A program made the translations under genes and the position numbers. A DNA stretch of 64,000 nt, taken from assembly GCA_964487665.1 (NCBI GenBank), contig CAZARR010000003.1, positions 6,998-70,997 of the forward strand. Direction: 5' to 3'. The notes under the pieces were generated by a model. That model did not search any database. It was given only the letters and a program-made list of their open reading frames with translations, and was not told where the DNA came from. This document shows, piece by piece, positions 4,494 to 64,000 of the stretch. The DNA is from an uncultured Pseudomonadales bacterium (lineage in GTDB: Bacteria > Patescibacteriota > Microgenomatia > UBA1400 > MFAQ01). Position 1 is the first letter of the stretch, and each line of letters starts with the position of its first letter.

Positions 4494-4535
4494 AGTAGAT
4501 ATTTTAGACGAGACCAGAATGCTAAGATATGGGTG

Positions 4536-6866: not shown

Positions 6867-6867
6867 T

Positions 6868-32039: not shown

Positions 32040-32435
32040 TCATTTTTTACTATCTAGGTATTCTTCGAGAATAATAGCAGCCGAATTGGCGTGGAGCGAA
32101 GATTTGTAATGGCGGGGACTGACGTTGGCCCGGGCCAATTCTGAACTTGCCTGGTGAGAGCTATTATCCTCAGAATAAAGGACAAACTTGATAGTGGGAA
32201 AGTTTGTACTCAGACTGCGATGAAGATTCTGAGAGAAGCGGACTATCGGTCCCGATCGAGGTTGCCCAATGACAACAATCTGTGGATGATACTGGGTGAT
32301 GATTGAATTAAGCGATACAACCAAATGTTTTAGAGACTTTGATTCAATAGTAGATAGGGGCAGAGCCAAAAGGTTTTGGTTGGCTATGGCGACACCAGTG
32401 TGTGAAAGGCCGGGGTCGAGGCAAAGTATCGTCAT
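32040..32435 (-). CDS. ruvX: Holliday-junction resolvase-like nuclease RuvX/YqgF
   Basis: N-terminal ILCLDPGLSHTGVAIA (YqgF RNase H-like motif); 131 aa. Confidence 0.8.
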   Translation of the reverse strand: MTILCLDPGLSHTGVAIANQNLLALPLSTIESKSLKHLVVSLNSIITQYHPQIVVIGQPRSGPIVRFSQNLHRSLSTNFPTIKFVLYSEDNSSHQASSELARANVSPRHYKSSLHANSAAIILEEYLDSKK

Positions 32436-33223
32436 ATGTTTCTGACTAGATCCGCCTCGACAATTAGGCGTTTGAGACGAGTTCCTGGCGGAACGCAGGT
32501 TATTAATTTCAATTTTTTGTGGTCGTAAATTTGTCGTAGTACCCAGGTGTCGCTTGGTTTGACTTGGTAAACTTTGGTCACTTTGTAGGTATAAGTGTTA
32601 TTGTTAAAATTTGTAAGAATAAGGTCGTCTAATTTTACGCTAGGGAGGTAAGTAAAGATGCTCATATAGTCATTCGGTTTGGTAAGCTGGGGAAGGGTCG
32701 AGTGTCCGAAAATAACTGTGTCGCCAAATCCCCCTGGGAGCGCAGTGCCAGGGAAGTGGACAAGACTTTTGCCCAGATCGTCGCCGTTGATTGTGACGAT
32801 TGCTAGATCAAGCTTGAGGCTAGGTACGCTAATGGTAAAGGTCTTGAGATCTGTGGGGGGAGGGTTGAGTTGTGAGATCGTAGTTGGTTCTGAAGGAGGA
32901 ATGTTTTTGGCGGCAAACCAGTTACTGGCCTTGGTAAAGTCGAGGTCGGAAACCACCTGAGGGCCGTTTTCGGTATCAAGTGAGGGGAATGATGACGCAT
33001 CGACGATTGGTGAAAGAAGTCCAACGCGGGCATATCGATCGGTTGTGGGTGAGTTGGATCTGTCAGTGAACTGATACTCGACGATCGGCCAAGTCACACT
33101 GGCAATAATTGCTAAGCCAAGAGCAGAAATTATTATAGGTAGTAACTTTAGATAAAGCGGGAGAATGTGTCCAGGATAAGGATTTTCTGGTGTGGCTTTT
33201 TGATATGCGTACGGTTCATACAT
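32432..33223 (-). CDS. Sortase-family transpeptidase (N-terminal TM anchor)
   Basis: Catalytic His in VIFGHSTLPQ, TLxTC-type Cys in KLITCVPPGT, conserved Arg in RLIVEADLVR. Confidence 0.8.
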   Translation of the reverse strand: MYEPYAYQKATPENPYPGHILPLYLKLLPIIISALGLAIIASVTWPIVEYQFTDRSNSPTTDRYARVGLLSPIVDASSFPSLDTENGPQVVSDLDFTKASNWFAAKNIPPSEPTTISQLNPPPTDLKTFTISVPSLKLDLAIVTINGDDLGKSLVHFPGTALPGGFGDTVIFGHSTLPQLTKPNDYMSIFTYLPSVKLDDLILTNFNNNTYTYKVTKVYQVKPSDTWVLRQIYDHKKLKLITCVPPGTRLKRLIVEADLVRNI

Positions 33224-35333
33224 TGGTTTGGTTAGAAACTATTATGATTTTTATCCTAGCGGGGTTTCTGGGGAGATATTGATTGAGAATTGGTAGACTG
33301 GGGGTAATTTTTACAACGATTGACGAAACTCCGCTGGTGTTGTCGAATAGGGAAGGAATTTTGCTTACCGATTTCCCGGCGAGAACCGAGGGATATTGGG
33401 CAACATTAATATCCGGAACTAATTGCCCTTGGACGGCGGCTGAGGCTGTGTAGCTGTCATTGGTGATCTTTTTTATATCGTTTAATACGATAGTAGTTGA
33501 GGTCGGATCAAGTTTTTTTTGACTGTATTTGCCAGACACAATTTGTTTGGTTAAGTTGTTTATCAAATTCTCTGGGGAATAAACCAAGACTGGTACAGAA
33601 GCGGATAAGTTGAGAGAAAGTTCGTCTGACGCCTCGGATATTTTGGCAGAAAACTTTTTGGTGGTAATCTTGATATCTCCCGAGACACTTTTTGACTCGT
33701 TGTCATTTGAGGTAGATTCGCTATTTACTTTGGTGCTGACCTCTGCGAGCGCTTGTTCTTCGAGAGACTTGATGTCTCTATCAGAAACAGCTTTGACTGT
33801 TTTTGAAGATCCGCCGGAGAAATCCTTGTCGCAAATGGCAATTAGTGTGCTTTTTGGATATTTATCGACAGAAAATTGGGTGTCTTTGGGGAGGTTGCTC
33901 TCTGCGCCAATTTTGAGAGCGCTTACGGTAATTGCTGAACTACCAGGAGTGATAACAAAGGGTGGTTCAGGCTGGGAGGAGCTTGAGGCAATAAAAACTG
34001 AGTCGTCTAGGCTGAAGTCCTGGCCATTGCTGGCAGTAACTTTTGTTCCTGCTTTAAGTGCTATCAATTGACTTGAACGGTTGTAGATTGTGATCGTGCC
34101 CTTGGCTTTGTCGCCAACTACGGTTTCTCCCGTGGTGCTTATCTTTTTTTCCACATTTACGGTTAGAGTTTCTTCGCGAAGAATAGCTGAGCCGGCCTGA
34201 TCTTTGGAGAGATTAACAGTGACTGTTTGTTCGAGACTTTCTGGTTTGGTCTTGATGGTAATTTCTGCCCGAACAAGAGATTGGTAGAAAAGGAATAGAA
34301 TAGCAGGAATTATTGGCACGCCAATAAGGAAAAAATATTTAAGTGAAAGTTGAGGAAGACGAAGCCTAGGAAGAGACAGGCTAGGAATAAGCCTATGTTT
34401 AAGTGATGTTTGGGGTTCGGGTTGGTGAATAACAAGAGGTGTTGGAGGCAAAGGAGGTGTGGAATCGATTTCCGGCGATTTATTTTCCGATTCGACTTCG
34501 AACCCAAGGTCTTTGAGGGTTGCCTCGTTTACCGGAGTGACATCAGAAGAGGCGATTGTGCCATCTTCTGTTGTTGGGGTAGTGACAACATCTAGCCCAA
34601 GAGATTTGGCAGCTTCAGTGCCACCACATAGGGCAATAGCCTTGATGGAAAAATCACTATCAAGAACTTCAACCTTGGGAAGATGTAAAAAGTTGAGTTT
34701 TTCTAACCATGGATAAGAGATAATCTGTTGGCGTTCATTGTCTAAGTTGGAACCATTTGTCAAGATGAAACGGACAGGGAGGCGGTCGGCTCCAATGCGA
34801 ACCAGGGCCTCTTCTACGTCCTTGGCCAGGTCATCGGAACGACCCACCTCTTCTTGTCTTTCCACCTGTCCAACCCTAATTAGCGATACTACGGCTCGGG
34901 TGGGGTAAATTTCAATAAGAATAGCAGTGGGAGGAATACCATCCTGTTTTTTGAGCTGCTGGACAATAGCTTCGGTGATCGTTACCAAGCCAATGGGCTT
35001 GAGGTTAAGATCGTTGATAATCTTTTTGATCTGTGAACTGTAGTCAGTGGAAATTTTGTCACCATCGAGCCAAGACTCGGGTAGTCCAAGGATAACCCGG
35101 TCTGGTTCGCTGCCTAAGGTCTTGACTGCGTTGGTAAGTGAAATGTCTACACCATTGACCAAGGACTCGCTATCTTCCCAGGCTTCGTATGAACCGACAG
35201 CGATAATTTCCGGCTGGTTGTCTACAACTTTCCAAGAAGCTGTTTTTACTAAAGAGTCATGAATTTCTAGAGCTAAGAAAAACTCCTCGGTCTGAGTGGG
35301 GCTGTCTTTTTTAAATAGGCGTTTTATCTCCAT
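33216..35333 (-). CDS. Hypothetical bitopic membrane protein. N-terminal cytoplasmic domain has weak actin-like (FtsA/PilM/GspL-cyto-like) resemblance; single TM; Ser/Thr-rich beta-rich extracytoplasmic C-terminal domain
   Basis: 705 aa. Degenerate phosphate-1-like LALEIHDSLVK. TM YFFLIGVPIIPAILFLFYQSLV at about residue 335. No LPXTG. The domain assignment is tentative. Confidence 0.35.
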   Translation of the reverse strand: MEIKRLFKKDSPTQTEEFFLALEIHDSLVKTASWKVVDNQPEIIAVGSYEAWEDSESLVNGVDISLTNAVKTLGSEPDRVILGLPESWLDGDKISTDYSSQIKKIINDLNLKPIGLVTITEAIVQQLKKQDGIPPTAILIEIYPTRAVVSLIRVGQVERQEEVGRSDDLAKDVEEALVRIGADRLPVRFILTNGSNLDNERQQIISYPWLEKLNFLHLPKVEVLDSDFSIKAIALCGGTEAAKSLGLDVVTTPTTEDGTIASSDVTPVNEATLKDLGFEVESENKSPEIDSTPPLPPTPLVIHQPEPQTSLKHRLIPSLSLPRLRLPQLSLKYFFLIGVPIIPAILFLFYQSLVRAEITIKTKPESLEQTVTVNLSKDQAGSAILREETLTVNVEKKISTTGETVVGDKAKGTITIYNRSSQLIALKAGTKVTASNGQDFSLDDSVFIASSSSQPEPPFVITPGSSAITVSALKIGAESNLPKDTQFSVDKYPKSTLIAICDKDFSGGSSKTVKAVSDRDIKSLEEQALAEVSTKVNSESTSNDNESKSVSGDIKITTKKFSAKISEASDELSLNLSASVPVLVYSPENLINNLTKQIVSGKYSQKKLDPTSTTIVLNDIKKITNDSYTASAAVQGQLVPDINVAQYPSVLAGKSVSKIPSLFDNTSGVSSIVVKITPSLPILNQYLPRNPARIKIIIVSNQTNV

Positions 35334-51125: not shown

Positions 51126-53056
51126 TACTCAACCACCGTGCCTTCCTCGACAGTACCGGCGTCTTTCTCAGACTTCTTGTCTTTGCTGGAGGCGTCCTTT
51201 TGCTGATCTTCTTTTGGGGTTGCTTGTTCGTCTGCAGCTGGGGTGGTGGGTTGAGCAGCCTTGTAAAGAGCCTCGGAGTGTTTTTGGGCAATATCTATTG
51301 CCTTTTTCATCTTGGTATCGATTGAGTCGAGGGTGGCGCTATCTTTTTTAGTTTCGTCTTCGAGCTCGGTGAGGGCTTTTTCTATTTCGTCTTTGGCTCC
51401 ACTGTCAAACTTATCACCAGCGTCCTTGATCGTTTTGCGGGTTGAACCGATAAAAGCATCTGCTTCATTACGTTTGTCAACGAATGCTTTGCGTTTTTCA
51501 TCAGCTTCTTTGTTGGCCTCTGCCTCTTTGCGCAATCGCTCGACCTCATCTTCGCTCAAATTGGTGGCATTCTTTATGGTAATTTTTTGGACTTTATCGG
51601 TAGCCTTGTCTTTGGCCGAAACGTTAAGGATGCCGTTTGAGTCAATATCAAAAGTGACTTCAATTTGAGGTACACCACGGGATGCTGGGGGAATCCCATC
51701 GAGAATAAAACGTCCGAGCGACTTGTTGTCTGTGGCCATGGGACGCTCGCCCTGGAGAACGTTGATTTCCACCTGGGGCTGGTTGTCCGAGGCCGTGGAA
51801 AACACCTGAGATTTGTTGGTGGGAATTGTAGTGTTGCGCTCTATCAAAGGAGTCATCACACCGCCGAGGGTTTCTAACCCCAAAGTCAGGGGGGTGACAT
51901 CCAACAAAAGGACATCTTTAACATCTCCGGCTAAGACTCCACCTTGAATGGCGGCTCCTAAGGCGACAACTTCGTCAGGATTGATACCCTTGTGGGGCTC
52001 TTTGCCAAAAAATTCTTTGACCACAGATGAGACCATGGGCATTCTGGTCATTCCACCAACCAAGACAACCTCATCGATCTTGGTGACGTCAATTTTGGCA
52101 TCCTTAAGAGCCTGTTTGACTGGATCAAGTGTTTTTTGAACCAAATCTTTGACAAGGTCTTCTAGCTTGGCTCGAGTAAGTTTCAGGTTTAGGTGCAGAG
52201 GCTGCCCGTCACTTCCCTGAGAGATAAAGGGTTGGTTAATCTCAGTTTCGGTGGCACTAGAAAGCTCAATCTTGGCTTTTTCAGCAGCGTCTTTGATGCG
52301 TTGAAGAGCCTGCTTGTCTTTGCCTAGGTCGATACCATTTTCTTTTTTAAACTCCGCAAGGATATACTCGATGATTCTTTCGTCGAAGTCATCACCTCCC
52401 AGAAAGGTGTCGCCATTGGTGGATTTGACCTCGAAAAGACCATCGCCAAGTTCGAGGATCGAGATATCAAAGGTGCCACCACCCAGATCATAAACGGCGA
52501 TAGTTTCGCTTTTGCCTTTGTCCAAACCATAAGCTAGGGCAGCGGCTGTTGGTTCGTTGATAATACGCTTGACTTCGAGCCCGGCAATTTGGCCCGCTTG
52601 TTTGGTCGCTTGGCGTTGTGAATCGTCGAAATAGGCCGGAACGGTAATAACTGCTTCCGTCACGGTCTGGCCTAAATAACTTTCGGCGTCTGTCTTGGCT
52701 TTTTGAAGTATTTTGGCGCTAATTTCCTGGGGAGTATAGGTTTTGTCCCCGATTTTGACTGCGGCAGATTGGTCAGAACTTTTAACGATATTATAGGGAA
52801 CAAGTTTTTTAGTTTTTTCAACTTGCGGATCATCGAATCGTCGACCCATGAGACGCTTGACGGAATAGATGGAGGTTTCGGGGTTTAAAATCATTTGCCG
52901 CTTGGCCACGTCCCCAACTAGATTTTTTAGGGGGGAAACAATCGAAGGAAAGGTGTTTCTTCCTTCAGCGGTGGGGATAATTTTGGCAGTGCCACCTTCC
53001 ATGACGGCAACTGCGCTGTTAGTGGTTCCTAGATCGATACCGATGATTTTTGTCAT
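51125..53056 (-). CDS. dnaK: Chaperone DnaK (Hsp70)
   Basis: [18 protein letters not shown], Hsp70 substrate-binding domain; 643 aa. Confidence 0.95.
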
Positions 53057-53080
53057 ATTGTTTGATTAAAAAATAATAAT

Positions 53081-53518
53081 TTAATTGGTAGCGCCAGCGA
53101 TTTTTCCCCGACCAACTTTGACACCGGCGGGGCGGATAAGTTTACCGTTGTGGTAACGGTAACCTCGCGAGATGGTTTCGATGACTTTGTTTTTTGGCCC
53201 GTCAACTGTTTCGAGACATTCCATGGAGCTTGGATCAAAATCCGAGTTAGTTGGCTCGAAGATTACAATGCCCTCTTCACTGAGCATTTTTTCGATACCA
53301 ACAATGATCTGATTGAGGCCTTGGTCGTGAAGATGTGTCTGGGCTCGGATGAGGTCATCAACCACCGGGAGCAGTTTCTCGATGAGGACCTCGTTGGCAA
53401 AGCGGATGATGTTGATTCTATCTACCTCGAACCGTTTTTGTAAATTTTGATAGTCCGCCAGGGCGCGTTTGTACTTTTCTTCATATTGGTCGGTATGGGA
53501 GTGTGGTTTGGTGGTCAT
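53081..53518 (-). CDS. grpE: Nucleotide exchange factor GrpE
   Basis: GrpE coiled-coil plus beta domain; position between hrcA and dnaK. Confidence 0.85.
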   Translation of the reverse strand: MTTKPHSHTDQYEEKYKRALADYQNLQKRFEVDRINIIRFANEVLIEKLLPVVDDLIRAQTHLHDQGLNQIIVGIEKMLSEEGIVIFEPTNSDFDPSSMECLETVDGPKNKVIETISRGYRYHNGKLIRPAGVKVGRGKIAGATN

Positions 53519-53524
53519 GAATGA

Positions 53525-54247
53525 TTATTCGGAGGCTATTTGATTAACTAAGTTGGCAATATAGCGAAGCATGGGTATATTGTGATTGTATGTCTGCCGA
53601 GAGGGAGCAATCAGACCTAATCGGCCGCGTTTATCACCCACTTGAATATCCGCGTACAGACAACTGACATCCGCCAAATTATCGTAACCCAATTCTGCAC
53701 CCACTAAAAGATGGATAGGGTCGTTGCCGAAACCACGGTTGAACATTTCCCAGATAGAGCCATAGTGGTCAATAATCATAAATACTTGACGAGTGGCTTG
53801 CAGGTTTAAAAATTCCTGAAACTCAAGCAAATAAGGGTAGCCGTGGTGGTATAGGTGTGAGTCTTCAAGAACAGCAATGGATAACGATCTGGTTCTATCA
53901 GCCAGTATTCTGGTGGCTTCCTGAAGTAAACTTTCAGAGTCGCGGCGGTTTTCCCAAACTTTTTCTTTGACGACGATCTCCTCGGCTACGGACAGGCCCC
54001 GTTCTTGCATTAATTCGTTGACATAGAGCTTGATAGCCATAGGAGTGGGGACACGGCCGGCTGAAGAATGGGGCTGTCGAAGGTAGCCTTTGGATTCCAA
54101 ATCGGCCATTTCGTTTCGCAGTGTAGCGGGCGAAACTCCCAGGCGATATTTTTGCTCGAGGGTGACACTGCCGACGGGGTCAGCAGTGGCTGTATATTCG
54201 TCAACGATGGCCTTTATGATGGCGATTTGGCGCGAGGTTAAATCCAT
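53525..54247 (-). CDS. hrcA: Heat-inducible transcription repressor HrcA (short form)
   Basis: N-terminal winged-helix (LTSRQIAIIKAIVDEYTATADPVGS); first gene of the hrcA-grpE-dnaK-dnaJ block. Confidence 0.8.
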   Translation of the reverse strand: MDLTSRQIAIIKAIVDEYTATADPVGSVTLEQKYRLGVSPATLRNEMADLESKGYLRQPHSSAGRVPTPMAIKLYVNELMQERGLSVAEEIVVKEKVWENRRDSESLLQEATRILADRTRSLSIAVLEDSHLYHHGYPYLLEFQEFLNLQATRQVFMIIDHYGSIWEMFNRGFGNDPIHLLVGAELGYDNLADVSCLYADIQVGDKRGRLGLIAPSRQTYNHNIPMLRYIANLVNQIASE

Positions 54248-54249
54248 AA

Positions 54250-54276
54250 TTAGCAGAAGGATAGCACGAGTGATAA
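54250..54276. promoter_or_regulatory. CIRCE-like imperfect inverted repeat immediately upstream of the hrcA start
   Basis: TTAGCAGAA-GGATAGCAC-GAGTGATAA versus CIRCE consensus TTAGCACTC-N9-GAGTGCTAA. Left arm 6/9, right arm 8/9. Located 3-30 nt from the hrcA ATG. Confidence 0.35.
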
Positions 54277-54315
54277 ATTGGTGTCAAGCAGCCGAAAGTT
54301 GGGTATGATGGAAGT

Positions 54316-55698
54316 ATGAAACCAAAGAGTTGGGGGGTTTGGCTACCACTCGTGTTGGGAAGCGTGATAATAGTGTTACTGGGAGTGATAATTCCTCGCA
54401 GGGTAAGATATTCTTCCCGCGCTCGGGACGTGGCAGCAAATCTGACCATTGATCTTTCGGGGCATCTTGGCAAACAACCTAAACTGTGGGCTGATTTGGC
54501 TCAGGGGGGAGAAGAAAACAAACCAATGTTGGGTCCGGCCATTGACAAAATAAGCGATTTGTCGCCCGGATATATTCGACTTGATCATATCTATGACTTT
54601 TTTAATGTGGTTAAGGTTGAGGGAGGCCAGGTTCAATTTAACTGGAGCGGGTTGGACCGAGCAGTTGGTGAGATAACAATGACGGGAGCTAAGCCTATGC
54701 TGGTGTTGTCATATATGCCACTATCGATATCTTCCGGCTCGATTACCGATCCTCCAAGAAATTGGAGTGATTGGCAAAATCTCGTTCGAGCGACCATAGA
54801 GCATTATAGTGGTCGGGGGAACAAGGCTATAGGGGGGGTAATTTACGAGGTTTGGAACGAACCGGATCTGTTTGGCAGCTTCAAAACTTATGGACCGAGG
54901 AATTATCTGACGATGTACCAATATGCGGCTCAGGGGGCGATGCAGGCACGTGACGTGTTGCACTTTGAAATTGGTGGGCCAGCGATAACTAACTATTATG
55001 CAAACTGGATCGAAAGGTTGATTAATTACGCTGATGAGAATAAATTACGTCTAGATTTTGTTAGTTGGCATCGATATTCATTGGACGTAGATAGTTTTGC
55101 CATAGATATAGACAAGGCGAGACAGTTGGCAGAGAGAATTCCGGCTCTGGTTAATTTAAAGTTCTATTTGACTGAGTGGGGACACAATAGCGCTAACGAT
55201 AGCGGTTATGACACTACTTTTGGAGCTATTCATAACATGGCGGTATATCAGTCGATTGTTGGTAAGGTCGATCGGGCTTTTTCATTCGAAATAAAAGATG
55301 GTCCTGGAAGCTCAAAGTACTGGGGCAGGTGGGGAATGTTGACACACGAAAATTTTGGGGTGGATGAAAAGCCGCGGTATAAGGCACTTAGATTTTTAAA
55401 TAATCTGTATCAATTCCGACTAGGGGCTGTTGGTCAGGGAACTTTTGTGCGGGCTCTGGCTACGACAAATGAAGCCGGGGATGTCAGATTACTTTTGACT
55501 AATTTTGACACAGAAGGGAGACACTTTGAGTCCGTGCCCATTTTGTTTGACAATTTGCCCAAGAGGGAATTTAGCTACAAGCGAATAGATTTTTTGGGGG
55601 GGAGTAATACTGTTAGAGTGGCTACATCCGAGGCGGTTTTTGCGTCTAGAGAGGGGATTGGACCAAATAGTGCAGCAATAATCGAGCTGGATTTTTAG
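54316..55698 (+). CDS. Membrane-anchored glycoside hydrolase, clan GH-A (GH39/GH5-like TIM barrel)
   Basis: N-terminal TM WGVWLPLVLGSVIIVLLGVII; acid/base motif IYEVWNEPD; nucleophile motif YLTEWGH; 460 aa. Confidence 0.6.
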   Translation: MKPKSWGVWLPLVLGSVIIVLLGVIIPRRVRYSSRARDVAANLTIDLSGHLGKQPKLWADLAQGGEENKPMLGPAIDKISDLSPGYIRLDHIYDFFNVVKVEGGQVQFNWSGLDRAVGEITMTGAKPMLVLSYMPLSISSGSITDPPRNWSDWQNLVRATIEHYSGRGNKAIGGVIYEVWNEPDLFGSFKTYGPRNYLTMYQYAAQGAMQARDVLHFEIGGPAITNYYANWIERLINYADENKLRLDFVSWHRYSLDVDSFAIDIDKARQLAERIPALVNLKFYLTEWGHNSANDSGYDTTFGAIHNMAVYQSIVGKVDRAFSFEIKDGPGSSKYWGRWGMLTHENFGVDEKPRYKALRFLNNLYQFRLGAVGQGTFVRALATTNEAGDVRLLLTNFDTEGRHFESVPILFDNLPKREFSYKRIDFLGGSNTVRVATSEAVFASREGIGPNSAAIIELDF

Positions 55699-55701
55699 AT
55701 T

Positions 55702-57480
55702 TCAATTCAGCTTCAAAATCGACAGGAATGTCTGAGGCGGAAGACTGACCTTGCCAAATTGTCGCATCCTTTGTTTACCTCGCTTTTGTTTCTCGAGCAG
55801 TTTCATTCGTCTGGTGCGATCCCCTCCATGCAGTTTGGCTGTGACGTCTTTGCGAAATGCTTTGATAGTGCGTCGGGCAATAATCTGATGATTAGCTGTT
55901 ACTTGTACGGCTACTTCAATTTGCTGCCGTGGTATGGATTGGGCCAATTTGTCTGCTAGTAGACGGGCTTTGGATTGGCTTTGGTCGGAACTTATGAGGA
56001 TCGATAGCGGAGTCACCTCGACGCCATTTAATAGTACGGTAAGTTTGGTTAGGTTCACTTCGCGCCAACTGTCGATTTGATAATCGACAGAAGCGTAACC
56101 AGAAGTAGATGATTTGAGGTTATCGTGAAGAGCGGTGATGACTTCGAGCAAAGGCATGGAATAAACGACGTTTGCCAGTTGATCGAGATAGCTAACATCG
56201 ATGAGGTCACCGCGAAGGTGTTCGCAAACAGAAAAGATGTCCCCGAGATAGCTACTCGGGGCAATAATGGTGGTTTTGGCCATTGGCTCGTAGATGGTAC
56301 CAATGTGAGAGGCGGGGTCAAAGTCAGCGGGGTTGGCGATAAATCGTTCCTCGCCATTAGAAGAGATCACTTTGTATTCAACTGAGGGAGAGGTGGTAAT
56401 GATATCAAGATGAAACTCCTGCTGTAATCTTTCGGAGGTTACTTCAGCGTGGAGCAGCCCAAGGAACCCAACCCGCAAACCCTGGCCCAGAGCAGGTGAA
56501 CTGATGGGGCGGATTTCTAGGGAACTATCGCTCAGACGTAATTTCCCCATCGCGTCACTTAGTTCCTTGTACAAGCCATTAACTAAAAAGATATCAAGAA
56601 ATAGGTTGGGGTGGACGCGACGATAACCTGGGAGGGAAGCCAAGTTATTTGGTTGGGGGTAATGGCAGATGGTGTCTCCTACGCCTACCTCGCGAATATC
56701 TTTGAAATTGGTGACGATGTAACCAACCTCACCCGAGGACAAGCTGTCTTTTGGCTCTCGGTTGGGGGTAAAAACCCCAAACTCAGTCGGGCGGAATCGA
56801 CGATGACTCGACATAAAAGTCAGTTCCTGATTGGGCAACAGAGTGCCTTCGCAGATTTTGACAAAGGCAATCACTCCTAAATGTTGATCAAAGGTGGAGT
56901 TGAAGACAAAAGCGCGAAATGGCTTACCAAGGTTAATAGCACTAGGACGAATAGAGTCTATAACTCGTTTTATAAGCTCTCCAATACCTTGACCGGTTTT
57001 GGCGCTGATTTGCAATGGGGCTAATGCCGGGAGCAACAACTTTGTTTGATTAATAACTGCTGGTACGTCGGCTAGAACGGCGTCAATCTTGTTGATGGCA
57101 GGGACAATGTCTAGGTTGAGATTTTGAGCTAAACGTAGATTAGCCACGGTCTGCGCTTGGACTCCCTTGGTGGCGTCGATGAGTAATATTGCACCTTCAC
57201 AAGCCTGAAGCGCACGCTCAACTTCGTAGTTAAAGTCGACGTGGCCGGGAGTATCGATGAGATTTAAAAGATACTGGTTGTCGGCAAGCCGATAGTGCAT
57301 GGAGACAGGAGCCATTTTGATGGTTATTCCGCGTGAGCGTTCGATGGGATTGCTATCAAGCAATTGATCATGCATTAACCGAGCATCGATGGTATTGGTT
57401 GCTTCGAGGAGGCGATCGGCTAGGGTGGATTTTCCAGCGTCGATGTGGGCAATAATGGCAAAGTTACGGATGTTGATCAC
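55702..57480 (-). CDS. lepA: Elongation factor 4 (LepA)
   Basis: [23 protein letters not shown]; LepA C-terminal domain; 592 aa. Confidence 0.95.
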   Translation of the reverse strand: MINIRNFAIIAHIDAGKSTLADRLLEATNTIDARLMHDQLLDSNPIERSRGITIKMAPVSMHYRLADNQYLLNLIDTPGHVDFNYEVERALQACEGAILLIDATKGVQAQTVANLRLAQNLNLDIVPAINKIDAVLADVPAVINQTKLLLPALAPLQISAKTGQGIGELIKRVIDSIRPSAINLGKPFRAFVFNSTFDQHLGVIAFVKICEGTLLPNQELTFMSSHRRFRPTEFGVFTPNREPKDSLSSGEVGYIVTNFKDIREVGVGDTICHYPQPNNLASLPGYRRVHPNLFLDIFLVNGLYKELSDAMGKLRLSDSSLEIRPISSPALGQGLRVGFLGLLHAEVTSERLQQEFHLDIITTSPSVEYKVISSNGEERFIANPADFDPASHIGTIYEPMAKTTIIAPSSYLGDIFSVCEHLRGDLIDVSYLDQLANVVYSMPLLEVITALHDNLKSSTSGYASVDYQIDSWREVNLTKLTVLLNGVEVTPLSILISSDQSQSKARLLADKLAQSIPRQQIEVAVQVTANHQIIARRTIKAFRKDVTAKLHGGDRTRRMKLLEKQKRGKQRMRQFGKVSLPPQTFLSILKLN

Positions 57481-59127
57481 TTAGTTTTGGGTTTGGGTAT
57501 CAATGACATCGCTGCTTGAGGATAGAATTTGGCGCCAGTTGCCCAGACGTTTTATTAGAGCCAAAGCATCGCGTAATTCTTCAATTTTGAAAATAAAACA
57601 AACCAGTACATATACCCCAACGCCAATGATGCTGACAATGGTAGTAAGGAGGATAAGAGGTAGGGTGTGGGTAGTGTCAAAAACAAAACGGTCAAGCAGA
57701 CGCATGGGAATCCATAGACAAATTCCGGTGGTAAGGCCAGCGGCCAGGTATTTTAAAAGCCGTTTTTCCAAGACTAGCGAGCCGGTTTTTTTGAGAATGA
57801 AATAGTAAAGGAGTAAAAAATCAATCGAGTTCGAAATAGTTAAAGCAAGACTAAGGCCTGGTAACCCAAGATGGAGAATAGTAACCAAAACGAACCCAAG
57901 TAAAGTAAATAGGGTGATGGTGATGAGGCTGATTAGTAGGGGGGTTTTGGTATCTTTGTGGGCGTAAAAGGCACGGACTAGAATGTGAGTAGTCGCCTGG
58001 GGGGCAATCGAAAGAGAAAGTAGAGCAAGCGTTTTGCCAGTCAAAAGGGTTGCCTCCCAAGGAAAGTTGTCGGCGCCGAAGGAGAGCCGGACCAAAGGAA
58101 TACGAAGAATTAGAACTAAAACCGAGGCAGGAATGGCAAAGAATAGGGTTTGTAACAACGATTTGCGAAGGGTTTGACGAAAAGCCTGTTGGTCAGAAAG
58201 AGCGGCCTCTTTTGACAAACTGGGAAAAGAGGCCTGGCCGAGAGCAACCCCAAAAAGACTTATCGGTAGTAAGTACAGCTGTCGGGCAAAGGTAAACATT
58301 GCCAGAGAACCACTAACCAAGAGGGAGCTAAGGTTGGTGGCAATAAAACGTTCGAATTGAGCGACTCCCAAGGCAGCGCTTCGCGCAGGCATCAAACGAA
58401 ACATGCTAACTACACCACGGTGTCGGAACGAAAATGACAATTTGGGAGTAAAACCCAAAGAGACGGCTGTGGGCAATTGAATGAGAAAATGCAGGATTGA
58501 ACCAATGACCATGCCAATGGCTGCAGAGTAGATACCAAAACGTGATGAGAGAGTAATGATACCAATGATGGTGCCCAGGTTATATAGAACCGGAGCCAAA
58601 GCTGGCAGCAAAAAACGGCGGTGGGCCTGAAGAACGCCGGTAAGAAAAGCGGAGATAGTAAAAAAGATTTGGGAAATGGCCATTATTCTCATCAGATCGG
58701 CTAACAAAAGGGTCTGTTGCACTCCGAAGTGGGTAATAAGTTGGGCCAGTGGTACTGCAAAAATAATTACCAATAGGGTAAAGAGAGCAAGAAGTAAGCC
58801 AAGCATGGTCATGGCGGTATTGGTTAGGTGGTTAGCCTCTTTTTCAGAAACTTTGAGGTAGTCCTGATAGATTGGCATAAAGGCCGCGGATAGAGAACCG
58901 ACAATTAGCAGCTGAAAAATGCCATCAGGAATAACCGAGGCGGCAAAATAGACATCAAGAGAACCTTCGTTGCCACCGAAGAACTGACCGGCCAGCAGGC
59001 GGTTGCGAATTACACCGAGTAGGGCCGAAAGTAGATAAGAGATGGCAATAATTGCGGCTGCCGAGAGAATATTTTTGTTTTCGCCATTTAATAGATGGCG
59101 CGAACGTTTGAGTATCGATTGGACCAT
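57481..59127 (-). CDS. murJ: Lipid II flippase MurJ/MviN
   Basis: 14-TM MOP-superfamily pattern with a MurJ N-terminal signature; 548 aa. Confidence 0.8.
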   Translation of the reverse strand: MVQSILKRSRHLLNGENKNILSAAAIIAISYLLSALLGVIRNRLLAGQFFGGNEGSLDVYFAASVIPDGIFQLLIVGSLSAAFMPIYQDYLKVSEKEANHLTNTAMTMLGLLLALFTLLVIIFAVPLAQLITHFGVQQTLLLADLMRIMAISQIFFTISAFLTGVLQAHRRFLLPALAPVLYNLGTIIGIITLSSRFGIYSAAIGMVIGSILHFLIQLPTAVSLGFTPKLSFSFRHRGVVSMFRLMPARSAALGVAQFERFIATNLSSLLVSGSLAMFTFARQLYLLPISLFGVALGQASFPSLSKEAALSDQQAFRQTLRKSLLQTLFFAIPASVLVLILRIPLVRLSFGADNFPWEATLLTGKTLALLSLSIAPQATTHILVRAFYAHKDTKTPLLISLITITLFTLLGFVLVTILHLGLPGLSLALTISNSIDFLLLYYFILKKTGSLVLEKRLLKYLAAGLTTGICLWIPMRLLDRFVFDTTHTLPLILLTTIVSIIGVGVYVLVCFIFKIEELRDALALIKRLGNWRQILSSSSDVIDTQTQN

Positions 59128-59166
59128 AGACTGGTTGATTATAAAGTGAAATGCTATAGTTTAAAT

Positions 59167-60855
59167 ATGCACGAAACTTCGATGGTGTTTGCGAAAGCGA
59201 TATTGGTTGTTATTCCCCTCTTGTTGATTGCAATAACGGTGGTGGGGGCCAAAATGGTTCTTAATACCAATCGATCCTTTGATGAGAGAAGTAGGGCGTA
59301 CAGTCCCGATGCCAAGACCGGAAGAGGCGGTGAAACAGGTGAAATTCCCACTGGTATCGTAATCAGCAAGACTGTTTGCCCCGACCCTACTGTTCCGCTG
59401 CCGGGGTGTGATTACTATGGTGGAGATGGAATAGCCCAAGCAATTTCGGGATTTAATCAGCCGGGGAATACATTATTGGTTAGGCTAAGAAGTACTGCAA
59501 TAAATTCATCGAGTGAGTATTGGCCTACGCAGGAAATGACTGTGAGAAATAATAATATTCTGGTATCTGGTGAGGGCAACAGGAAACCGGTGATTGTTGT
59601 TAACAATGTTCGGGGGGCTCATTATTTAACCGCGGGGGTGGGATCGTCTTTGAGGCTGAACAATATACGCATTGAGGGAGGAATGAATAACAAGTCAAGT
59701 TTGCTAAGGGTGGAAAACGCTGGAAAATTGGAGTTAGTTAGCAGTGAGATAGCCAATACAAAAATTGGTGTTCTTGGAATCGAGGGAACTGTCAGGTTGA
59801 CCGATAACCTTTTTCAGGGTAATAACATGGCGGTACAGATTCAGTATTTCGATAGGGTGCAACACAATTCGCTGTTAAGAAATAATGTCTTTCTGAGTAA
59901 CGGAGGGGGTCTACGGGCTGGTTGTTATTATGCAAACACAGATGATTTATCTGTCCAAAATAACGTATTTTTTACCAACTCTAGCGTAAGCAGCCCCCAG
60001 CTTTCTCTACATGTTGGGTCTGAACCATGTCGCTCATTATCGGTAAACAATAATATATTTAAGGGGACGCAAAATATCGGAAATGGCTTATTTATCGAGT
60101 TTTCGAATCCTAACCCCGTGCCAACTGTCCTGGGAGCAATTAAATATAATAATGCTTTTGGGTTTCAATCCAACTTTTTACTTAATGGATCGGGGTCGGG
60201 CCAAATGGATCCTACAAATATTTCAGTAAACCCCAAGTTTGTGGGGGAACCGAGTAATTTCAGGTTGGCGGCCAACTCTCCACTTATTAATGCTGGAAAT
60301 CCCGAGCAGATGTATTTGGACACGGATGGAAGTAGAAATGATATGGGGGTTTATGGCGGGCCATTTGGAAGTTATTTTGGTAATTGGGGATCGCCAGCGA
60401 CCTGCAACCTTTGTGACTTGGATGATGACAACTTGGTAGAGGGAGGTAATGCGACTCCGCGAGGAGATGACATAAACCGGGTGATTGCCTGTCTGGGACA
60501 GCGTGTTGCCACCAATCCAAGTTGTGCAAAGGCAGATTTTACGGCTGATGGATTGCTGATAAACTCAGGCGACGTGACCAGTTTTGTTGGCTTGTGCAAT
60601 GGGATGCAGGGACGCAGTTGTTCGAGTGCTATTTGTAGCGCCCCAAATATCCCCGGACAGAGAGCGGACACTGACTTGAATAAAGATTATGTTGTTAACA
60701 ACATAGATGTGGCGATATTTGATAATAGTCTTTGCTCAGGAATAGCTAGCTTATCTGGCCAGGTTTGGAAGTATTGCCGGATGTTTGACATAAATGGCGA
60801 TTACCAGGTGGACCAGGTTGATAGGCAAATGGTTAGTAGTTGTGTTGGACAATAG
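59167..60855 (+). CDS. Secreted/anchored right-handed beta-helix (PbH1 repeat) protein with four C-terminal Cys-containing dockerin-like calcium-binding repeats
   Basis: Start MHETSMVFAKAILVVIPLLLIAI (signal/anchor). PbH1-like repeats NNVFLSNGGG, NNVFFTNSS, NNNIFKGTQN. The C-terminal 147 aa (60412-60852) carry the repeats DLDDDNLVEGG..IACLG, DFTADGLLINSGDVTSFVGLCNG, DLNKDYVVNNIDVAIFDNSLCSG, DINGDYQVDQVDRQMVSSCVGQ. Confidence 0.6.
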   Translation: MHETSMVFAKAILVVIPLLLIAITVVGAKMVLNTNRSFDERSRAYSPDAKTGRGGETGEIPTGIVISKTVCPDPTVPLPGCDYYGGDGIAQAISGFNQPGNTLLVRLRSTAINSSSEYWPTQEMTVRNNNILVSGEGNRKPVIVVNNVRGAHYLTAGVGSSLRLNNIRIEGGMNNKSSLLRVENAGKLELVSSEIANTKIGVLGIEGTVRLTDNLFQGNNMAVQIQYFDRVQHNSLLRNNVFLSNGGGLRAGCYYANTDDLSVQNNVFFTNSSVSSPQLSLHVGSEPCRSLSVNNNIFKGTQNIGNGLFIEFSNPNPVPTVLGAIKYNNAFGFQSNFLLNGSGSGQMDPTNISVNPKFVGEPSNFRLAANSPLINAGNPEQMYLDTDGSRNDMGVYGGPFGSYFGNWGSPATCNLCDLDDDNLVEGGNATPRGDDINRVIACLGQRVATNPSCAKADFTADGLLINSGDVTSFVGLCNGMQGRSCSSAICSAPNIPGQRADTDLNKDYVVNNIDVAIFDNSLCSGIASLSGQVWKYCRMFDINGDYQVDQVDRQMVSSCVGQ

Positions 60856-60876
60856 TAAACTGGTAAAATCACCGGC

Positions 60877-61122
60877 ATGCCAGTACTAAAACACGCAAAA
60901 AAGAAGCTTCGCGCAGACATCAAGAAACAGGTAGCCAACCGGACAGTAAGAACGCGGGCGGTAAGTGCTTTGGACAAGGCCAAAAAGACAAAGGAGGCCG
61001 TGGACATGTCCGAGGCATTTCGCAGGCTAGACAGGGCAGCCAAGACCGGTGTCTTTCACAAGGGAAAGGTCGACCGTCTCAAATCTAGGCTGGCCAAACT
61101 TTTCTTGACTCTGAAGAAATAA
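60877..61122 (+). CDS. rpsT: 30S ribosomal protein S20
   Basis: MPVLKHAKKKLRADIKKQVANRTVRTRA.. S20 signature. Confidence 0.85.
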   Translation: MPVLKHAKKKLRADIKKQVANRTVRTRAVSALDKAKKTKEAVDMSEAFRRLDRAAKTGVFHKGKVDRLKSRLAKLFLTLKK

Positions 61123-61149
61123 TCCCTGATAAGTTATACTTAGTTTTGT

Positions 61150-61713
61150 ATGTCTGCCCAGCGGAAGATTGTTGGTATTGATTTGCTTCCTGGAAACTCG
61201 TTTGAGAAGAGCGATCTGGGTTTGGTATTGAATTGGATCAAGATATCGGGTAGAACGATAATTGTATTGACGGAGTTTGCGGTTATTTTGGCCTTTGGTT
61301 CGCGGTTTTGGTTTGACAAAACACTTAATGACCTGAAGGAGACGGTGGATCAAAAACAAAGCGTGGTGCGAAGCTACGAAAGTGTCGAGACAAAGATGCG
61401 GGATACACTGGCTCGCGAAGCCGTGGTCAGTGGATCGTTGGGAGGTAGTGCCCGAATAAATATACTGGTCGAGGATCTGGTGGTAGCAACACCAATTGAC
61501 GTTTTTTTTGAGAATATCTCTTGTATTGGTTCTTTGGTGGCTATCCGAGGAAGAGCCGGATCTGAGCTAGGACTTTCGGGTTTATTGGCGAACTTGACCA
61601 AAAACCCTAAGGTGGGCCAAGTATCGTTAAGCGAAATTAAATATTCCCAGACGGACAAACAACTTAGTTTTGGAGTAAGTTTTGAATACACAAACGAAGG
61701 GGGTAAAAAATGA
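61150..61713 (+). CDS. Type IV pilus assembly protein PilN-like
   Basis: N-terminal IVGIDLLPGN (INLLP-like PilM-binding motif); TM IIVLTEFAVILAFG; periplasmic domain; 187 aa. Confidence 0.6.
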   Translation: MSAQRKIVGIDLLPGNSFEKSDLGLVLNWIKISGRTIIVLTEFAVILAFGSRFWFDKTLNDLKETVDQKQSVVRSYESVETKMRDTLAREAVVSGSLGGSARINILVEDLVVATPIDVFFENISCIGSLVAIRGRAGSELGLSGLLANLTKNPKVGQVSLSEIKYSQTDKQLSFGVSFEYTNEGGKK

Positions 61714-62360
61714 TAATAAATCGAGCCGGTTATGATGCTTATTACCAAAGGATAAGAGATTTGTATCAACAGCCCGTAGTGTCTGTATCAGTTGAGGTGA
61801 TTCTGAATATTTTCGTAGTGGCCTTTTTGGTAACGTTTGTGATCAGGCCTACTTTTGGGGTAGTAGCTAGCCTAAAAAAACAAACTGAAGACCAAAGGAT
61901 CGTAGACACAAAGTTGACAAGTAAAATCAATTCCCTTAATCAGGCCCGGGGTACATTAGCGGAACAAGCAGCATTTTTGCCGCTATATACATCTGCAGTC
62001 AGCAAAGAATCGGACTTGGACGGGTTGGTTCTTCGGATCGAAAAATTGGCGTCTGAATATCAGATCCAGCTTACGGGGCTAAAATTGGGGGGGGTAGCTT
62101 TATTGGGAGACGATCTGGAGCTGGACAAAGGTAAGGGGGTAAGGAAAGTATCTACAGAAAAGGCAAATGAAGTATCTATGTCATTTACTGTAGAGGGGAG
62201 TTTTGCAAGACTAACCCCCTTTTTGTCTGATATGCAAAAGATGGATAGGCTGGTTAAGGTAGATGGGGTAAGCTTTAGTAAAGACAAAAAAAGTAAAACG
62301 GGGTTGGTGGCCATGTCTGGAACAGCACATGTTTACTATATGCCTAGCAAATCATTGTGA
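61710..62360 (+). CDS. Type IV pilus assembly protein PilO-like
   Basis: TM ILNIFVVAFLVTFVI, coiled-coil, C-terminal ferredoxin-like domain; 216 aa; 4-nt overlap with the upstream gene. Confidence 0.55.
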   Translation: MIINRAGYDAYYQRIRDLYQQPVVSVSVEVILNIFVVAFLVTFVIRPTFGVVASLKKQTEDQRIVDTKLTSKINSLNQARGTLAEQAAFLPLYTSAVSKESDLDGLVLRIEKLASEYQIQLTGLKLGGVALLGDDLELDKGKGVRKVSTEKANEVSMSFTVEGSFARLTPFLSDMQKMDRLVKVDGVSFSKDKKSKTGLVAMSGTAHVYYMPSKSL

Positions 62361-62653
62361 AAATTAAAAAAGCTCCAAGCGCATACGTGGCAATAATTGG
62401 GGTGGTCACCCTCTGTGTCGCAGGAAGTTTTTTGCTGTATACGATCTACTCGGCGCTGAGAAAAAGCCAGATAAGTCCTCAGCAAAAATTGGATATACTT
62501 CCCCTTGTTGGTCAGCTAAATTCAAAGGTGATAGATGATTTAAAAAGCAGACGACGGTTTGAAAAAAGCGAGCTGGAAAATATTCCGAGAGTGAGCCCAA
62601 GTATAACTGTCACAGCAATACCAAGTAGTCCATCGGCACAACCAGCACCATGA
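62357..62653 (+). CDS. Hypothetical small membrane protein with Pro/Ser-rich tail (pilus-cluster member)
   Basis: TM YVAIIGVVTLCVAGSFLLY; 98 aa; ATGA overlaps on both sides. Confidence 0.45.
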   Translation: MKIKKAPSAYVAIIGVVTLCVAGSFLLYTIYSALRKSQISPQQKLDILPLVGQLNSKVIDDLKSRRRFEKSELENIPRVSPSITVTAIPSSPSAQPAP

Positions 62654-64000
62654 AATTTGGAGTAAGAACAATACTAAGCAGAAAGGTCCCAACTTTGTTG
62701 GCCTTGCCCATATTGGTGTTGGGGTTGGTGGGTGGCGTGATGGTGGTAGGTAAAAAAAGTAATTTTGGAATCAAGGCAGGACCGACATCGGTGCCAAAAA
62801 ATGTTCGCGTGACTAACCTAAGTCACGACAAGATGACCATCTCCTGGGTGACTGACACCCCGGTAGTTGGTTTTGTGAAATACTCGGAAAACCCTAGTAA
62901 TATAAATACACCAGCGGGGGACGGCAGAGACCAAAGGTCAGGTTCGAATGGTTTGTACACCACACACTCGGTTGACCTAAATAGCCTATCCCCAACAAAG
63001 ACGTATTATTTCGAAGTCGGTTCTGGTTCGGTAATGTACGATGATTCCGGACGCCCATACCAAGCAACAACTTTTGCAGCCATGGCGGTACCAAGCGAAG
63101 ATGTAGCCAACGGAAAGGTACTGGCAACAAACGGGCAGGCGGCTGGAGGAGTACTGGTTTACGCAGAACTGGAAGCGGGGCAGGGTTTGTCTACTATTAG
63201 TCGAGACGACGGAACGTGGAGAATCAACTTGTCAGAAGCACGCGGGCAACAAGGGCAACCTTTGGGTTACAACACACAGACAACCCGGATAAATTTGTTT
63301 TTTCAAGGGGGCTTACTAGGATCTTCGGGCGTGACGACAACAACTGGCCAAGACAGTCCCGTACCAGATACGGTTTTGGGGCGAACATACAACTACATTG
63401 ACCCACCGACCCCAACAGCAACTATGGCGCCCGCTTCACCCACACCCAGTGTGGGGGCAAGTAATCCGTTTGGAGGGATGGTACAAAACCAACCAACCCC
63501 TTCGGTCGTGGCCAATAGTGGGATTCAGCTAGAGAATCCTGCTTTTGAGGGAGAGGCAATTTCAACCGGGGTACCTGAGTTGAGAGGAACCGCACCGGCG
63601 GGAGTAGTACTTTCTATCACTGTCCACTCTGAAACAGTTATTACCGGACAGGTAGTGGTGGGTAATGACGGCCAGTGGTCTTTTACTCCCCCATCCGGTT
63701 TAGAACCCGGTGAGCATACCGTGACGGTTGAATACACGGATTTGCAGGGGGTGGTACAGCGGCTAACCAGAAGTTTCGTGGTCCTTGCTGATGATGGTAC
63801 GAATTTCCCAGCCTTTACCTCGACACCATCGGCGACCCCCACATTGACTATCACACCAACACCAACACCAACGTACTACTACCTGTCACCAACGGCGACT
63901 CCATCAACCGTTGCCAGTATGCCTTCGACAAATTCGAGCCTACCTACGGTTGGGTCATTGACACCCACCGTAGCACTATTTATATTGGGAGTGGGCCTGT
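62650..64000 (+). CDS. Large cell-surface protein, partial (continues beyond the window). N-terminal anchor, FN3-like domain, Ig-like domain, Pro/Thr-rich linker, C-terminal hydrophobic segment
   Basis: Absent from the ORF track (no stop in window). Manually translated from ATG 62650 (MKFGVRTILSRKVPTLLALPILVLGLVGGVMVVGKKS...); open through 64000, 450 codons. FN3-like VRVTNLSHDKMTISWVTDTPVVGFVKY...TYYFEV. Ig-like GTAPAGVVLSITVHSETVITGQVVVGNDGQWSFTPPSGLEPGEHTVTVEYTD. Tail SLPTVGSLTPTVALFILGVGL. Confidence 0.6.
   Translation, partial: MKFGVRTILSRKVPTLLALPILVLGLVGGVMVVGKKSNFGIKAGPTSVPKNVRVTNLSHDKMTISWVTDTPVVGFVKYSENPSNINTPAGDGRDQRSGSNGLYTTHSVDLNSLSPTKTYYFEVGSGSVMYDDSGRPYQATTFAAMAVPSEDVANGKVLATNGQAAGGVLVYAELEAGQGLSTISRDDGTWRINLSEARGQQGQPLGYNTQTTRINLFFQGGLLGSSGVTTTTGQDSPVPDTVLGRTYNYIDPPTPTATMAPASPTPSVGASNPFGGMVQNQPTPSVVANSGIQLENPAFEGEAISTGVPELRGTAPAGVVLSITVHSETVITGQVVVGNDGQWSFTPPSGLEPGEHTVTVEYTDLQGVVQRLTRSFVVLADDGTNFPAFTSTPSATPTLTITPTPTPTYYYLSPTATPSTVASMPSTNSSLPTVGSLTPTVALFILGVGL

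Follow-up and report, generated by a model that had tools for sequence, protein, structure and literature searches.

The closest described counterparts of the gene block considered here are the pilMNOPQ operons of type IVa pili (T4aP) in Pseudomonas, Myxococcus and Thermus, in which pilM is followed by pilN and pilO, and these in turn by the genes for PilP, a beta-sandwich lipoprotein, and PilQ, a secretin. The type IV pilus (T4P) loci of the single-membrane bacteria Clostridium perfringens (PMC11580942) and Saccharibacteria TM7x (loci 1 and 2; PMC11623550) have no PilQ; in these organisms PilN and PilO serve the platform as accessory proteins in the membrane, and their genes, like pilM, lie beside those for the ATPase, the platform and the pilins, in TM7x together with pilB and pilC (PMC11623550). 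Across the candidate phyla radiation (CPR), PilB/T, PilC, PilO, PilN and a 'GspL-domain PilM' are enriched and, in numerous genomes, co-localised; PilQ is absent from CPR, and almost all Microgenomates have a sortase (Méheust et al., 2019; PMC6744442). The present analysis concerns a block of four genes, two of which are pilN and pilO homologues, at the end of a 64,000-nt stretch of DNA (hereafter the window); the block occupies positions 61150-64000, with the rpsT gene upstream. The source is a Collierbacteria-like member of the Microgenomates (CPR), an ultrasmall bacterium, in agreement with the CPR origin assumed in a preliminary description of this DNA.

The block is part of a conserved run of genes on the + strand that opens with rpsT (ribosomal protein S20; 60877-61122; Pfam Ribosomal_S20p, 35.6 bits) and continues, 27 nt further on, with the pilN homologue (ORF1; 61150-61713; 187 aa), the pilO homologue (ORF2; 61710-62360; 216 aa), a gene for a small bitopic membrane protein (ORF3; 62357-62653; 98 aa) and a gene for an envelope protein with FN3-type, CarboxypepD_reg-like and bacterial Ig-like (Big_13) domains (ORF4, the FN3/Ig protein; 62650-64000). 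The last of these frames was said to be open to position 64000, and it is indeed so, with 450 codons and no stop before the window ends. In related genomes, the four genes are jointly present, jointly absent and fixed in order, and hence constitute one unit. The favoured reading, to which a probability of about one half is given, is that the block represents the PilN/PilO half of the T4P alignment platform combined with two lineage-specific envelope partners. The comparisons suggest a widely conserved, undescribed, wall-linked variant of a known system rather than a system of a new kind; literature searches turned up no account of an rpsT-pilN-pilO-small-FN3/Ig block.

ORF1 is identified as a genuine PilN homologue because its Pfam score exceeds the gathering score (PF05137, 34.7 bits against 22.8, residues 106-178) and because a profile built from 31 PilN orthologues matches Myxococcus PilN (3jc8_Na, E=6.3e-8); the profile was required for this match, the single-sequence search of PDB being negative. 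The protein is predicted to be bitopic, with a short cytoplasmic N-terminus that carries the motif IDLLP at residues 10-14, one hydrophobic helix at residues ~35-52 and the PilN domain in the C-terminal part. The preliminary description had singled out this INLLP-like motif, and INLLP or VNLLP is found in nearly all of 54 PilN orthologues, with the consensus (I/V)NLLPKDSFE.S..GK.L.W. The INLLP motif is reportedly the PilM-binding peptide of PilN, a finding credited to Karuppiah and Derrick 2011 and to McCallum et al. 2016; literature searches on the text of the motif returned nothing relevant. PilM does bind the N-terminus of PilN (PMC6325625), and PDB entry 5eou bears the title 'PilM:PilN1-12'. 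Given the conserved INLLP-type N-terminus, PilN of the block would therefore be expected to dock a PilM.

ORF2 is an equally genuine PilO homologue, in sequence as well as in the modelled structure. The PilO family of Pfam (PF04350) matches it with 36.7 bits against a gathering score of 22, and a profile from 54 PilO homologues, which was required since the single-sequence PDB search was marginal, retrieves the structures of PilO from Myxococcus (3jc8_Oa, 4.9e-11) and Pseudomonas (2rjz, 2e-5) as well as 5uvr (1.2e-4). The AlphaFold2 model (pLDDT 89.7) predicts an N-terminal helix, a transmembrane (TM) helix that runs on into a long coiled coil (helix residues 22-85), and a ferredoxin-like domain with a beta-alpha-beta core. 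A Foldseek comparison of this model with PDB gave four matches at E<=1e-3, all of them PilO structures, with PulM among the lower-ranked matches.

The type II secretion system (T2SS) protein GspM is a paralogue of PilO, and GspC links the T2SS platform to the outer structure, a role resembling that proposed below for the additional proteins of the block. The matches of ORF2 to GspM models are weak, however, and remain under the family cut-offs (NF040576, 23.7 bits with a cut-off of 60; T2SSM_b, 16.8 bits with a cut-off of 21.7), and PilO matches better than GspM throughout; furthermore, neither a GspL fusion nor GspC, a secretin or pseudopilins are present. These results bear out the identification of a PilN-like and a PilO-like protein in the preliminary description, and the searches with family models and folds that it had proposed as a check have returned matches.

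The exhaustive HMMER search with PilO recovered 1074 cluster representatives at E<=1e-3, 320 of them at E<=1e-10, all of ~200-250 aa, the closest named relatives belonging to Candidatus Collierbacteria; exact look-ups of the window PilO found no record, and a word-index search with it found only the protein itself. A genome scan started from PilO alone returned nothing, and alignments of PilO diverged too far to serve as seeds; an alignment of MurJ was used instead, which, with one genome per species, yielded 54 loci. These belong to Collierbacteria, Woesebacteria, Chisholmbacteria, Amesbacteria and unnamed Patescibacteria. In total, 61 sequences were analysed for block content by local phmmer and hmmsearch. 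The conserved arrangement consists of murJ on the opposite strand, pointing away from rpsT-pilN-pilO-small TM-FN3/Ig. Of the 61 sequences, 54 (53 loci and the window) contain pilN as well as pilO; the FN3/Ig gene is found in 53, at the same position, and the small ORF in 48; the six loci without a called small ORF have a gap of 141-198 nt at its place. The rpsT gene precedes pilN in 53 loci, usually at a distance of 9-110 nt, and at one (L061) it was not called at its usual position. Further genomic contexts, from 45% PilO identity down to matches ranked ~70 and ~115, show the same order in every case.

Whether the large fourth gene also occurs without the PilN/PilO pair had been raised as a check, and among the relatives it never does; the two most distant FN3/Ig homologues that were looked up lie inside the same block. 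Conversely, two loci (L043 and L055) have kept rpsT beside murJ and lost all four block genes, and the other sequences without the block are mostly too short on that side. The block has been inherited vertically across many lineages of Microgenomates, and the lineages that share it carry the labels of several candidate phyla in the source records.

The junctions within the block are conserved along with the order. The distance from pilN to pilO is -13 to +12 nt in 54 of 54 cases, that from pilO to the small gene is mostly -4 nt, and the small gene and the FN3/Ig gene are in most cases -8 to +7 nt apart; the tight coupling in related genomes, which the preliminary description had asked about together with co-occurrence, is thus conserved. 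In the window, three ATGA overlaps had been claimed, and two of these exist, at 61710-61713 (pilN/pilO) and at 62650-62653 (ORF3/ORF4); the overlap at 62357-62360 (pilO/ORF3) is really GTGA, the GTG start of ORF3 being backed by the alignment of orthologues. By themselves the overlaps say little because such overlaps and tight gaps are common throughout this genome (4-nt overlaps in 8 of 55 same-strand neighbour pairs, gaps of <=10 nt in 37 of the 55), and the claim that they argue for a stoichiometric complex does not stand in a genome so compact. The feature beyond chance is the conservation of order and tight junctions, rather than the overlaps per se, and on that ground, as well as on that of joint absence from L043 and L055, the proposal that the four genes are one unit is upheld. 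A promoter and terminator scan showed no excess over shuffled sequences and is uninformative on co-transcription with rpsT.

The product of ORF3 has a basic N-terminus, a single TM helix, a conserved external segment of ~35 aa with the pattern K-P-L-D-G/P...L..L..R, and a Ser/Thr/Pro tail. In 48 loci an orthologue of 64-134 aa is encoded in the interval from pilO to the FN3/Ig gene, and the protein matches no family in Pfam or NCBIfam. Unlike PilP, it has a TM helix instead of a lipobox and no domain of the size of a beta-sandwich.

The FN3 domain of purple-acid-phosphatase type and the bacterial Ig-like domain that the preliminary description had assigned to ORF4 are both recovered by Pfam (Pur_ac_phosph_N, 41.4 bits with a gathering threshold (GA) of 30, residues 50-137; Big_13, 39.4 bits with a GA of 27, residues 308-373), and homologues contain a CarboxypepD_reg-like domain (PF13620) in the middle region, between these two. 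No secretin domain was found in ORF4 by Pfam, the protein being made of FN3, Big_13 and related domains. At the N-terminus, a hydrophobic segment read directly from the sequence (residues ~13-34; 62686-62751) is preceded by a conserved (K/R)IPT and followed by KAGP, a pattern kept in the orthologues, and is predicted to be a signal peptide or a signal anchor.

The end of the gene is provided by a 228-kb JGI contig (L001; Ga0172278_1818) with 97.0% nucleotide identity to the window over positions 51710-64000. According to this contig, the stop lies 17 codons past the window end and the full protein comprises 467 aa, so that it is not "giant", as it had been called before. Across the loci, the length of the FN3/Ig protein stays at ~420-510 aa and the architecture is constant as well, and the identity to the window protein across lineages (28-50%) is on a par with that of PilN (20-44%) and PilO (25-43%). 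Because of this constant size and equal conservation, the FN3/Ig protein resembles a part of a machine and not a fast-evolving adhesin, contrary to the surface-adhesin behaviour suggested for it in the preliminary description; the 'PilNO-anchored adhesin module' proposed there would have to be inferred, as would any part in attachment to hosts. The truly variable surface proteins are encoded by the genes downstream of ORF4. A reading of ORF4 as an S-layer protein was dropped, weak matches to S-layer models being limited to a few orthologues.

The C-terminus of ORF4 is laid out like a sortase sorting signal of degenerate form. In L001 the protein ends ...LPTVGSLTPTVALFILGVGLFVLGVFWRNKLAKYTRI, its C-terminus reading ...SMPSTNSSLPTVGSLTPTVALFILGVGLFVLGVFWRNKLAKYTRI, or ...SLTPTVALFILGVGLFVLGVFW followed by RNKLAKYTRI as the basic tail; a Pro/Thr-rich linker precedes a pentapeptide with Gly as its last residue, after which come a hydrophobic helix and the basic tail. 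The same tripartite layout, with ~16-22 hydrophobic residues, is present in ~45 ORF4 orthologues, in which the pentapeptide takes the form [LVIT]-x-x-[ASTVP]-G and the canonical Thr is often gone; the NCBIfam model LPXTG_anchor (TIGR01167) matches 8 of 45 orthologues weakly (best E=0.018). ORF4 thus shares with the LPXTG proteins of Gram-positive bacteria the tripartite signal, the Pro/Thr-rich, wall-spanning linker and the occurrence of a gene for a sortase in the genome. That sortase, which had been correctly noted at 32432-33223 (- strand; Pfam Sortase, 74.6 bits), is a candidate enzyme for the ORF4 signal; it scores under every NCBIfam class cut-off (best for class C, 64.6 bits against 160), and its gene is unlinked, 28 kb from the block.

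Based on these features, the favoured reading, a partial T4P platform with envelope partners, can be spelled out as follows. PilN and PilO would form a membrane heterodimer through their coiled coils and ferredoxin-like domains, and a PilM whose gene lies elsewhere, at the main pilus locus, would be bound by the INLLP-type N-terminus that PilN has in the cytoplasm, which would connect the pair with the motor of PilB and PilC. The genes of the small bitopic protein and of the FN3-CarboxypepD_reg-Big_13 protein take the places in the operon that diderms give to pilP and pilQ. In this cell with a single membrane and no secretin, the FN3/Ig protein would be exported by Sec, after which its C-terminal helix would retain it in the membrane or the sortase would attach it to peptidoglycan; it might then stand as a short stalk, three beta-sandwich domains long, that braces the platform at the wall or leads the fibre across. 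The comparisons above establish the identities of PilN and PilO, the domain architecture, the tripartite signal at the C-terminus of ORF4 and the joint conservation, tight coupling and joint absence of the four genes; the partnership with PilM, any contact of the PilN/PilO pair with these two proteins, processing by the sortase and a part in making pili are inferred.

The complete genome of Ch65, from a lineage that is sibling to Collierbacteria, has a single T4P locus for which PilA, minor pilins, PilD, PilB, PilT, PilC and PilM are listed and PilN and PilO are not (PMC7143001), as is to be expected if pilN and pilO lie elsewhere, as they do at this block. The likeness to the T4aP operons extends beyond the homology of PilN and PilO in family models, profiles and fold to the order of N before O with translational coupling, to the INLLP-type N-terminus of PilN and to the two envelope genes at the places of pilP and pilQ. 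The differences are that the gene upstream of pilN is rpsT and not pilM as in T4aP and canonical PilN loci, that the third gene encodes a bitopic protein of 64-134 aa instead of the PilP lipoprotein, that the fourth encodes a 467-aa FN3/Ig protein with a sortase-type signal instead of a secretin, and that the host has one membrane and keeps the block apart from other pilus genes. Similarly, pilMNO of C. perfringens and TM7x sit with ATPase, platform and pilin genes, whereas pilN and pilO are detached here, and the small TM and FN3/Ig genes are unlisted in the descriptions of those loci (PMC11623550, PMC11580942).

Several observations weigh against this assignment. In a Pfam scan of 36 larger ORFs of the window, located at 80-6950 and ~30.8-64 kb, no pilM, pilB, pilC, pilT, pilD, pilin or secretin gene was found, and none of pilM, pilB, pilC, pilT, pilD or a pilin gene occurs within ~10 kb of the block in ~60 relatives; the absence of adjacent pilM, secretin and pilin genes, and the position behind rpsT, had already been pointed out. 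A search for prepilin motifs in all related loci produced spurious ORFs in alternative frames only, with no prepilin-like N-terminus in real ORFs. The recurrent neighbours are instead genes of envelope biogenesis and glycosylation, namely murJ, PMT/GT39, GT4, GT87, DUF2298, LytR_cpsA_psr and FemAB. PilM for this organism is taken from the literature on a sibling lineage, and a second pilN/pilO pair at the pilus locus is possible. With ORF3 showing no similarity to PilP and the FN3/Ig protein none to secretins, the analogy to PilP and PilQ is positional only. The pentapeptide of ORF4 is LPTVG (63940-63954), with Val replacing the Thr of LPXTG, and the TIGR01167 model does not match the protein; in this the signal is, as had been stated, LPXTG-like and non-matching. 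Finally, PilMNO homologues have been co-opted for a non-pilus role, in the flagellar cage (PMC10823254).

The last point leads to the most serious alternative, considered possible but clearly less probable than the pilus assignment, namely that a PilN/PilO-type scaffold has been co-opted for an envelope task other than the pilus, with the FN3/Ig protein as its cargo or anchoring element. Such a scaffold could, with a PilM-like or other ASKHA partner, organise a site at which surface glycoproteins are exported, O-glycosylated and anchored, or it could belong to a piston of T2SS type that drives proteins across the wall. This explanation would account for the position of the block, which always lies amid envelope-biogenesis genes, is followed by variable large surface proteins and is never adjoined by pilus genes. 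A Pro/Thr-rich linker such as that of ORF4 is the kind of segment modified by PMT enzymes in actinobacteria. Apart from the flagellar cage, a precedent exists in C. perfringens, where secretion of the matrix protein BsaC through the wall needs pilM, pilN and pilO (PMC11580942). However, the glycosylation genes vary in order and content, unlike the four-gene core, and the conserved INLLP motif fits an ordinary partnership with PilM. Moreover, CPR genomes generally have T4P genes, and such organisms need a PilN/PilO pair; as the pilus locus of the sibling lists none, the simplest assumption is that the pair of the block is the T4P pair.

It is improbable that the arrangement reflects synteny without a physical complex, with the FN3/Ig and small proteins being ordinary envelope proteins that share a transcript behind the highly expressed rpsT, in a part of the genome that is compact and seldom rearranged. 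The packing is tight throughout the genome, as shown above, and the surrounding housekeeping order hrcA-grpE-dnaK, lepA, murJ, rpsT is conserved too. Nevertheless, the genes downstream vary freely between families whereas the four block genes do not, all four have been lost together in L043 and L055, and the start/stop overlaps at the three junctions persist where PilO identity is as low as 25-45%.

Very improbable is an assignment to the donor-strand-exchange, Ig-like 'Pam' pilus of CPR with the FN3/Ig protein as a PamR-like terminator or anchor: according to a 2026 preprint (10.64898/2026.03.03.709456), Pam is likewise a CPR-specific envelope system with Ig/FnIII-like domains and C-terminal TM helices, homologues are reported in Microgenomatia, and PamR consists of two FnIII domains and a C-terminal TM helix, but, going by these descriptions only, the pam operon has PapD-like chaperones and adjoins ATP synthase and corB/MFS genes, with PilN and PilO unmentioned in the two sections of the source consulted, whereas the block adjoins murJ, lepA and rpsT, and no PapD/FimC-like chaperone family was matched in the block or its neighbours by Pfam.

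A bolder proposal may be made tentatively, although it is rather unlikely on present evidence: in Microgenomates, the PilP-PilQ outer module might have given way to the small bitopic protein and to a stalk, anchored by sortase and built of three beta-sandwich domains, that is encoded in the same operon as PilN and PilO and would couple the platform physically to peptidoglycan. For the T4P of single-membrane bacteria, which have to cross the wall and brace against it, we know of no secretin, PilP or other dedicated wall component; the block offers concrete wall-side candidates, and a stalk of this kind would be, as far as we know, the first defined trans-wall component of a T4P machine in a single-membrane bacterium. 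Host attachment and DNA uptake by CPR bacteria are believed to depend on T4P. The block also explains why the pilus locus annotated in a sequenced relative lists neither pilN nor pilO. If, on the other hand, the scaffold has been co-opted, the block would be a second case of the reuse of PilN/PilO in another envelope task, and under either reading three widespread 'hypothetical' protein families are given a context.

The remaining content of the scanned window ORFs is mostly housekeeping: genes for an AsnS/LysS-type tRNA synthetase, RelA, RecJ, SecF, AlaRS, FtsK, RNase J, PNPase, IF-2, NusA, DnaK/DnaJ/GrpE and HrcA, together with a GH39 protein and a dockerin/beta-helix protein. LepA and MurJ were identified through the precomputed annotation of the orthologous contig, the lipid II flippase gene murJ (57481-59127, - strand) by a precomputed Pfam MurJ match on the orthologous gene. 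Between murJ and rpsT, the window encodes a secreted protein of 586 aa (59095-60855, + strand) with beta-helix-like repeats and a C-terminal dockerin type I domain that scores at the threshold (23.1 bits). This gene is found at the murJ/rpsT junction only in the window and its 97% relative and is a recent insertion, because the other loci do not have it at this conserved junction.

Downstream of the block, the gene content differs between lineages. In L001, the block is followed by genes for a 779-aa protein without domain match, a 974-aa TSP1 protein, a PMT (GT39), a GT87 and an amine oxidase. In Collierbacteria, between one and four large surface proteins that are paralogous, a few of them containing DUF11, are encoded there, and in Amesbacteria a 187-aa cytoplasmic protein, a GT4 and methyltransferases. 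PMT-like genes, DUF2298, LytR_cpsA_psr and FemAB follow at many loci. An amine oxidase/DAO-family flavoprotein and DUF2298 recur downstream together with a PMT (GT39)-like gene and often LytR_cpsA_psr (L004, L007, L009, L021-L023, L030-L032, L035, L036, L041, L066 and others), a set that suggests a conserved envelope glycosylation neighbourhood.

The 974-aa surface protein (L001 14683-17607, + strand), encoded ~2.7 kb beyond the window end, contains two thrombospondin type 1 repeats (Pfam TSP_1, 45.6 bits; WSxW...CSxTCGGG), long Ser/Gly runs and a C-terminal LPEAG followed by a hydrophobic stretch; TSP1 repeats are unusual in bacteria. A few residues past the N-terminal TM helix, this protein, its neighbour (L001 12347-14686) and large downstream proteins of L003, L020, L021 and L029 carry the motif F-(R/S)-G-D-(I/L)-R-Q-R-A, and some of them also have a Pro-rich cytoplasmic N-terminus. 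The idea that F-x-G-D-I-R-Q-R-A might be a general sorting signal was rejected, as just six proteins among the loci have it.

The start of the sortase gene is overlapped, at 33216-33223, by a gene for a 705-aa protein (33216-35333, - strand) that matches no Pfam family and has ~160 homologues in Microgenomates. In its AlphaFold2 model (pLDDT 86.7), an actin-like (ASKHA) domain at the N-terminus, best matched by EutJ, PPX/GppA, PilM and FtsA, is followed by a disordered Pro-rich linker, a TM helix (331-353) and a beta-rich external domain resembling phage baseplate-J proteins. The order AlaRS / 705-aa gene / sortase / RuvX / YceG is kept in a relative in which identity is 42%. This protein was considered as the missing PilM and rejected, since EutJ, PPX/GppA, sugar kinases and FtsA match equally and no Pfam PilM or GspL match was obtained; its role may be that of a transmembrane sortase partner, or it may be PilM/GspL-like.

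The GC skew of the + strand is positive in all 2-kb bins of the window (0.04-0.27 over 1-64000), and the cumulative skew climbs monotonically, with no turning point, even though the - strand carries the majority of the genes as far as 54 kb. This agrees with the one-strand G/C disparity that has been published for Collierbacteria and their relatives (PMC7143001).

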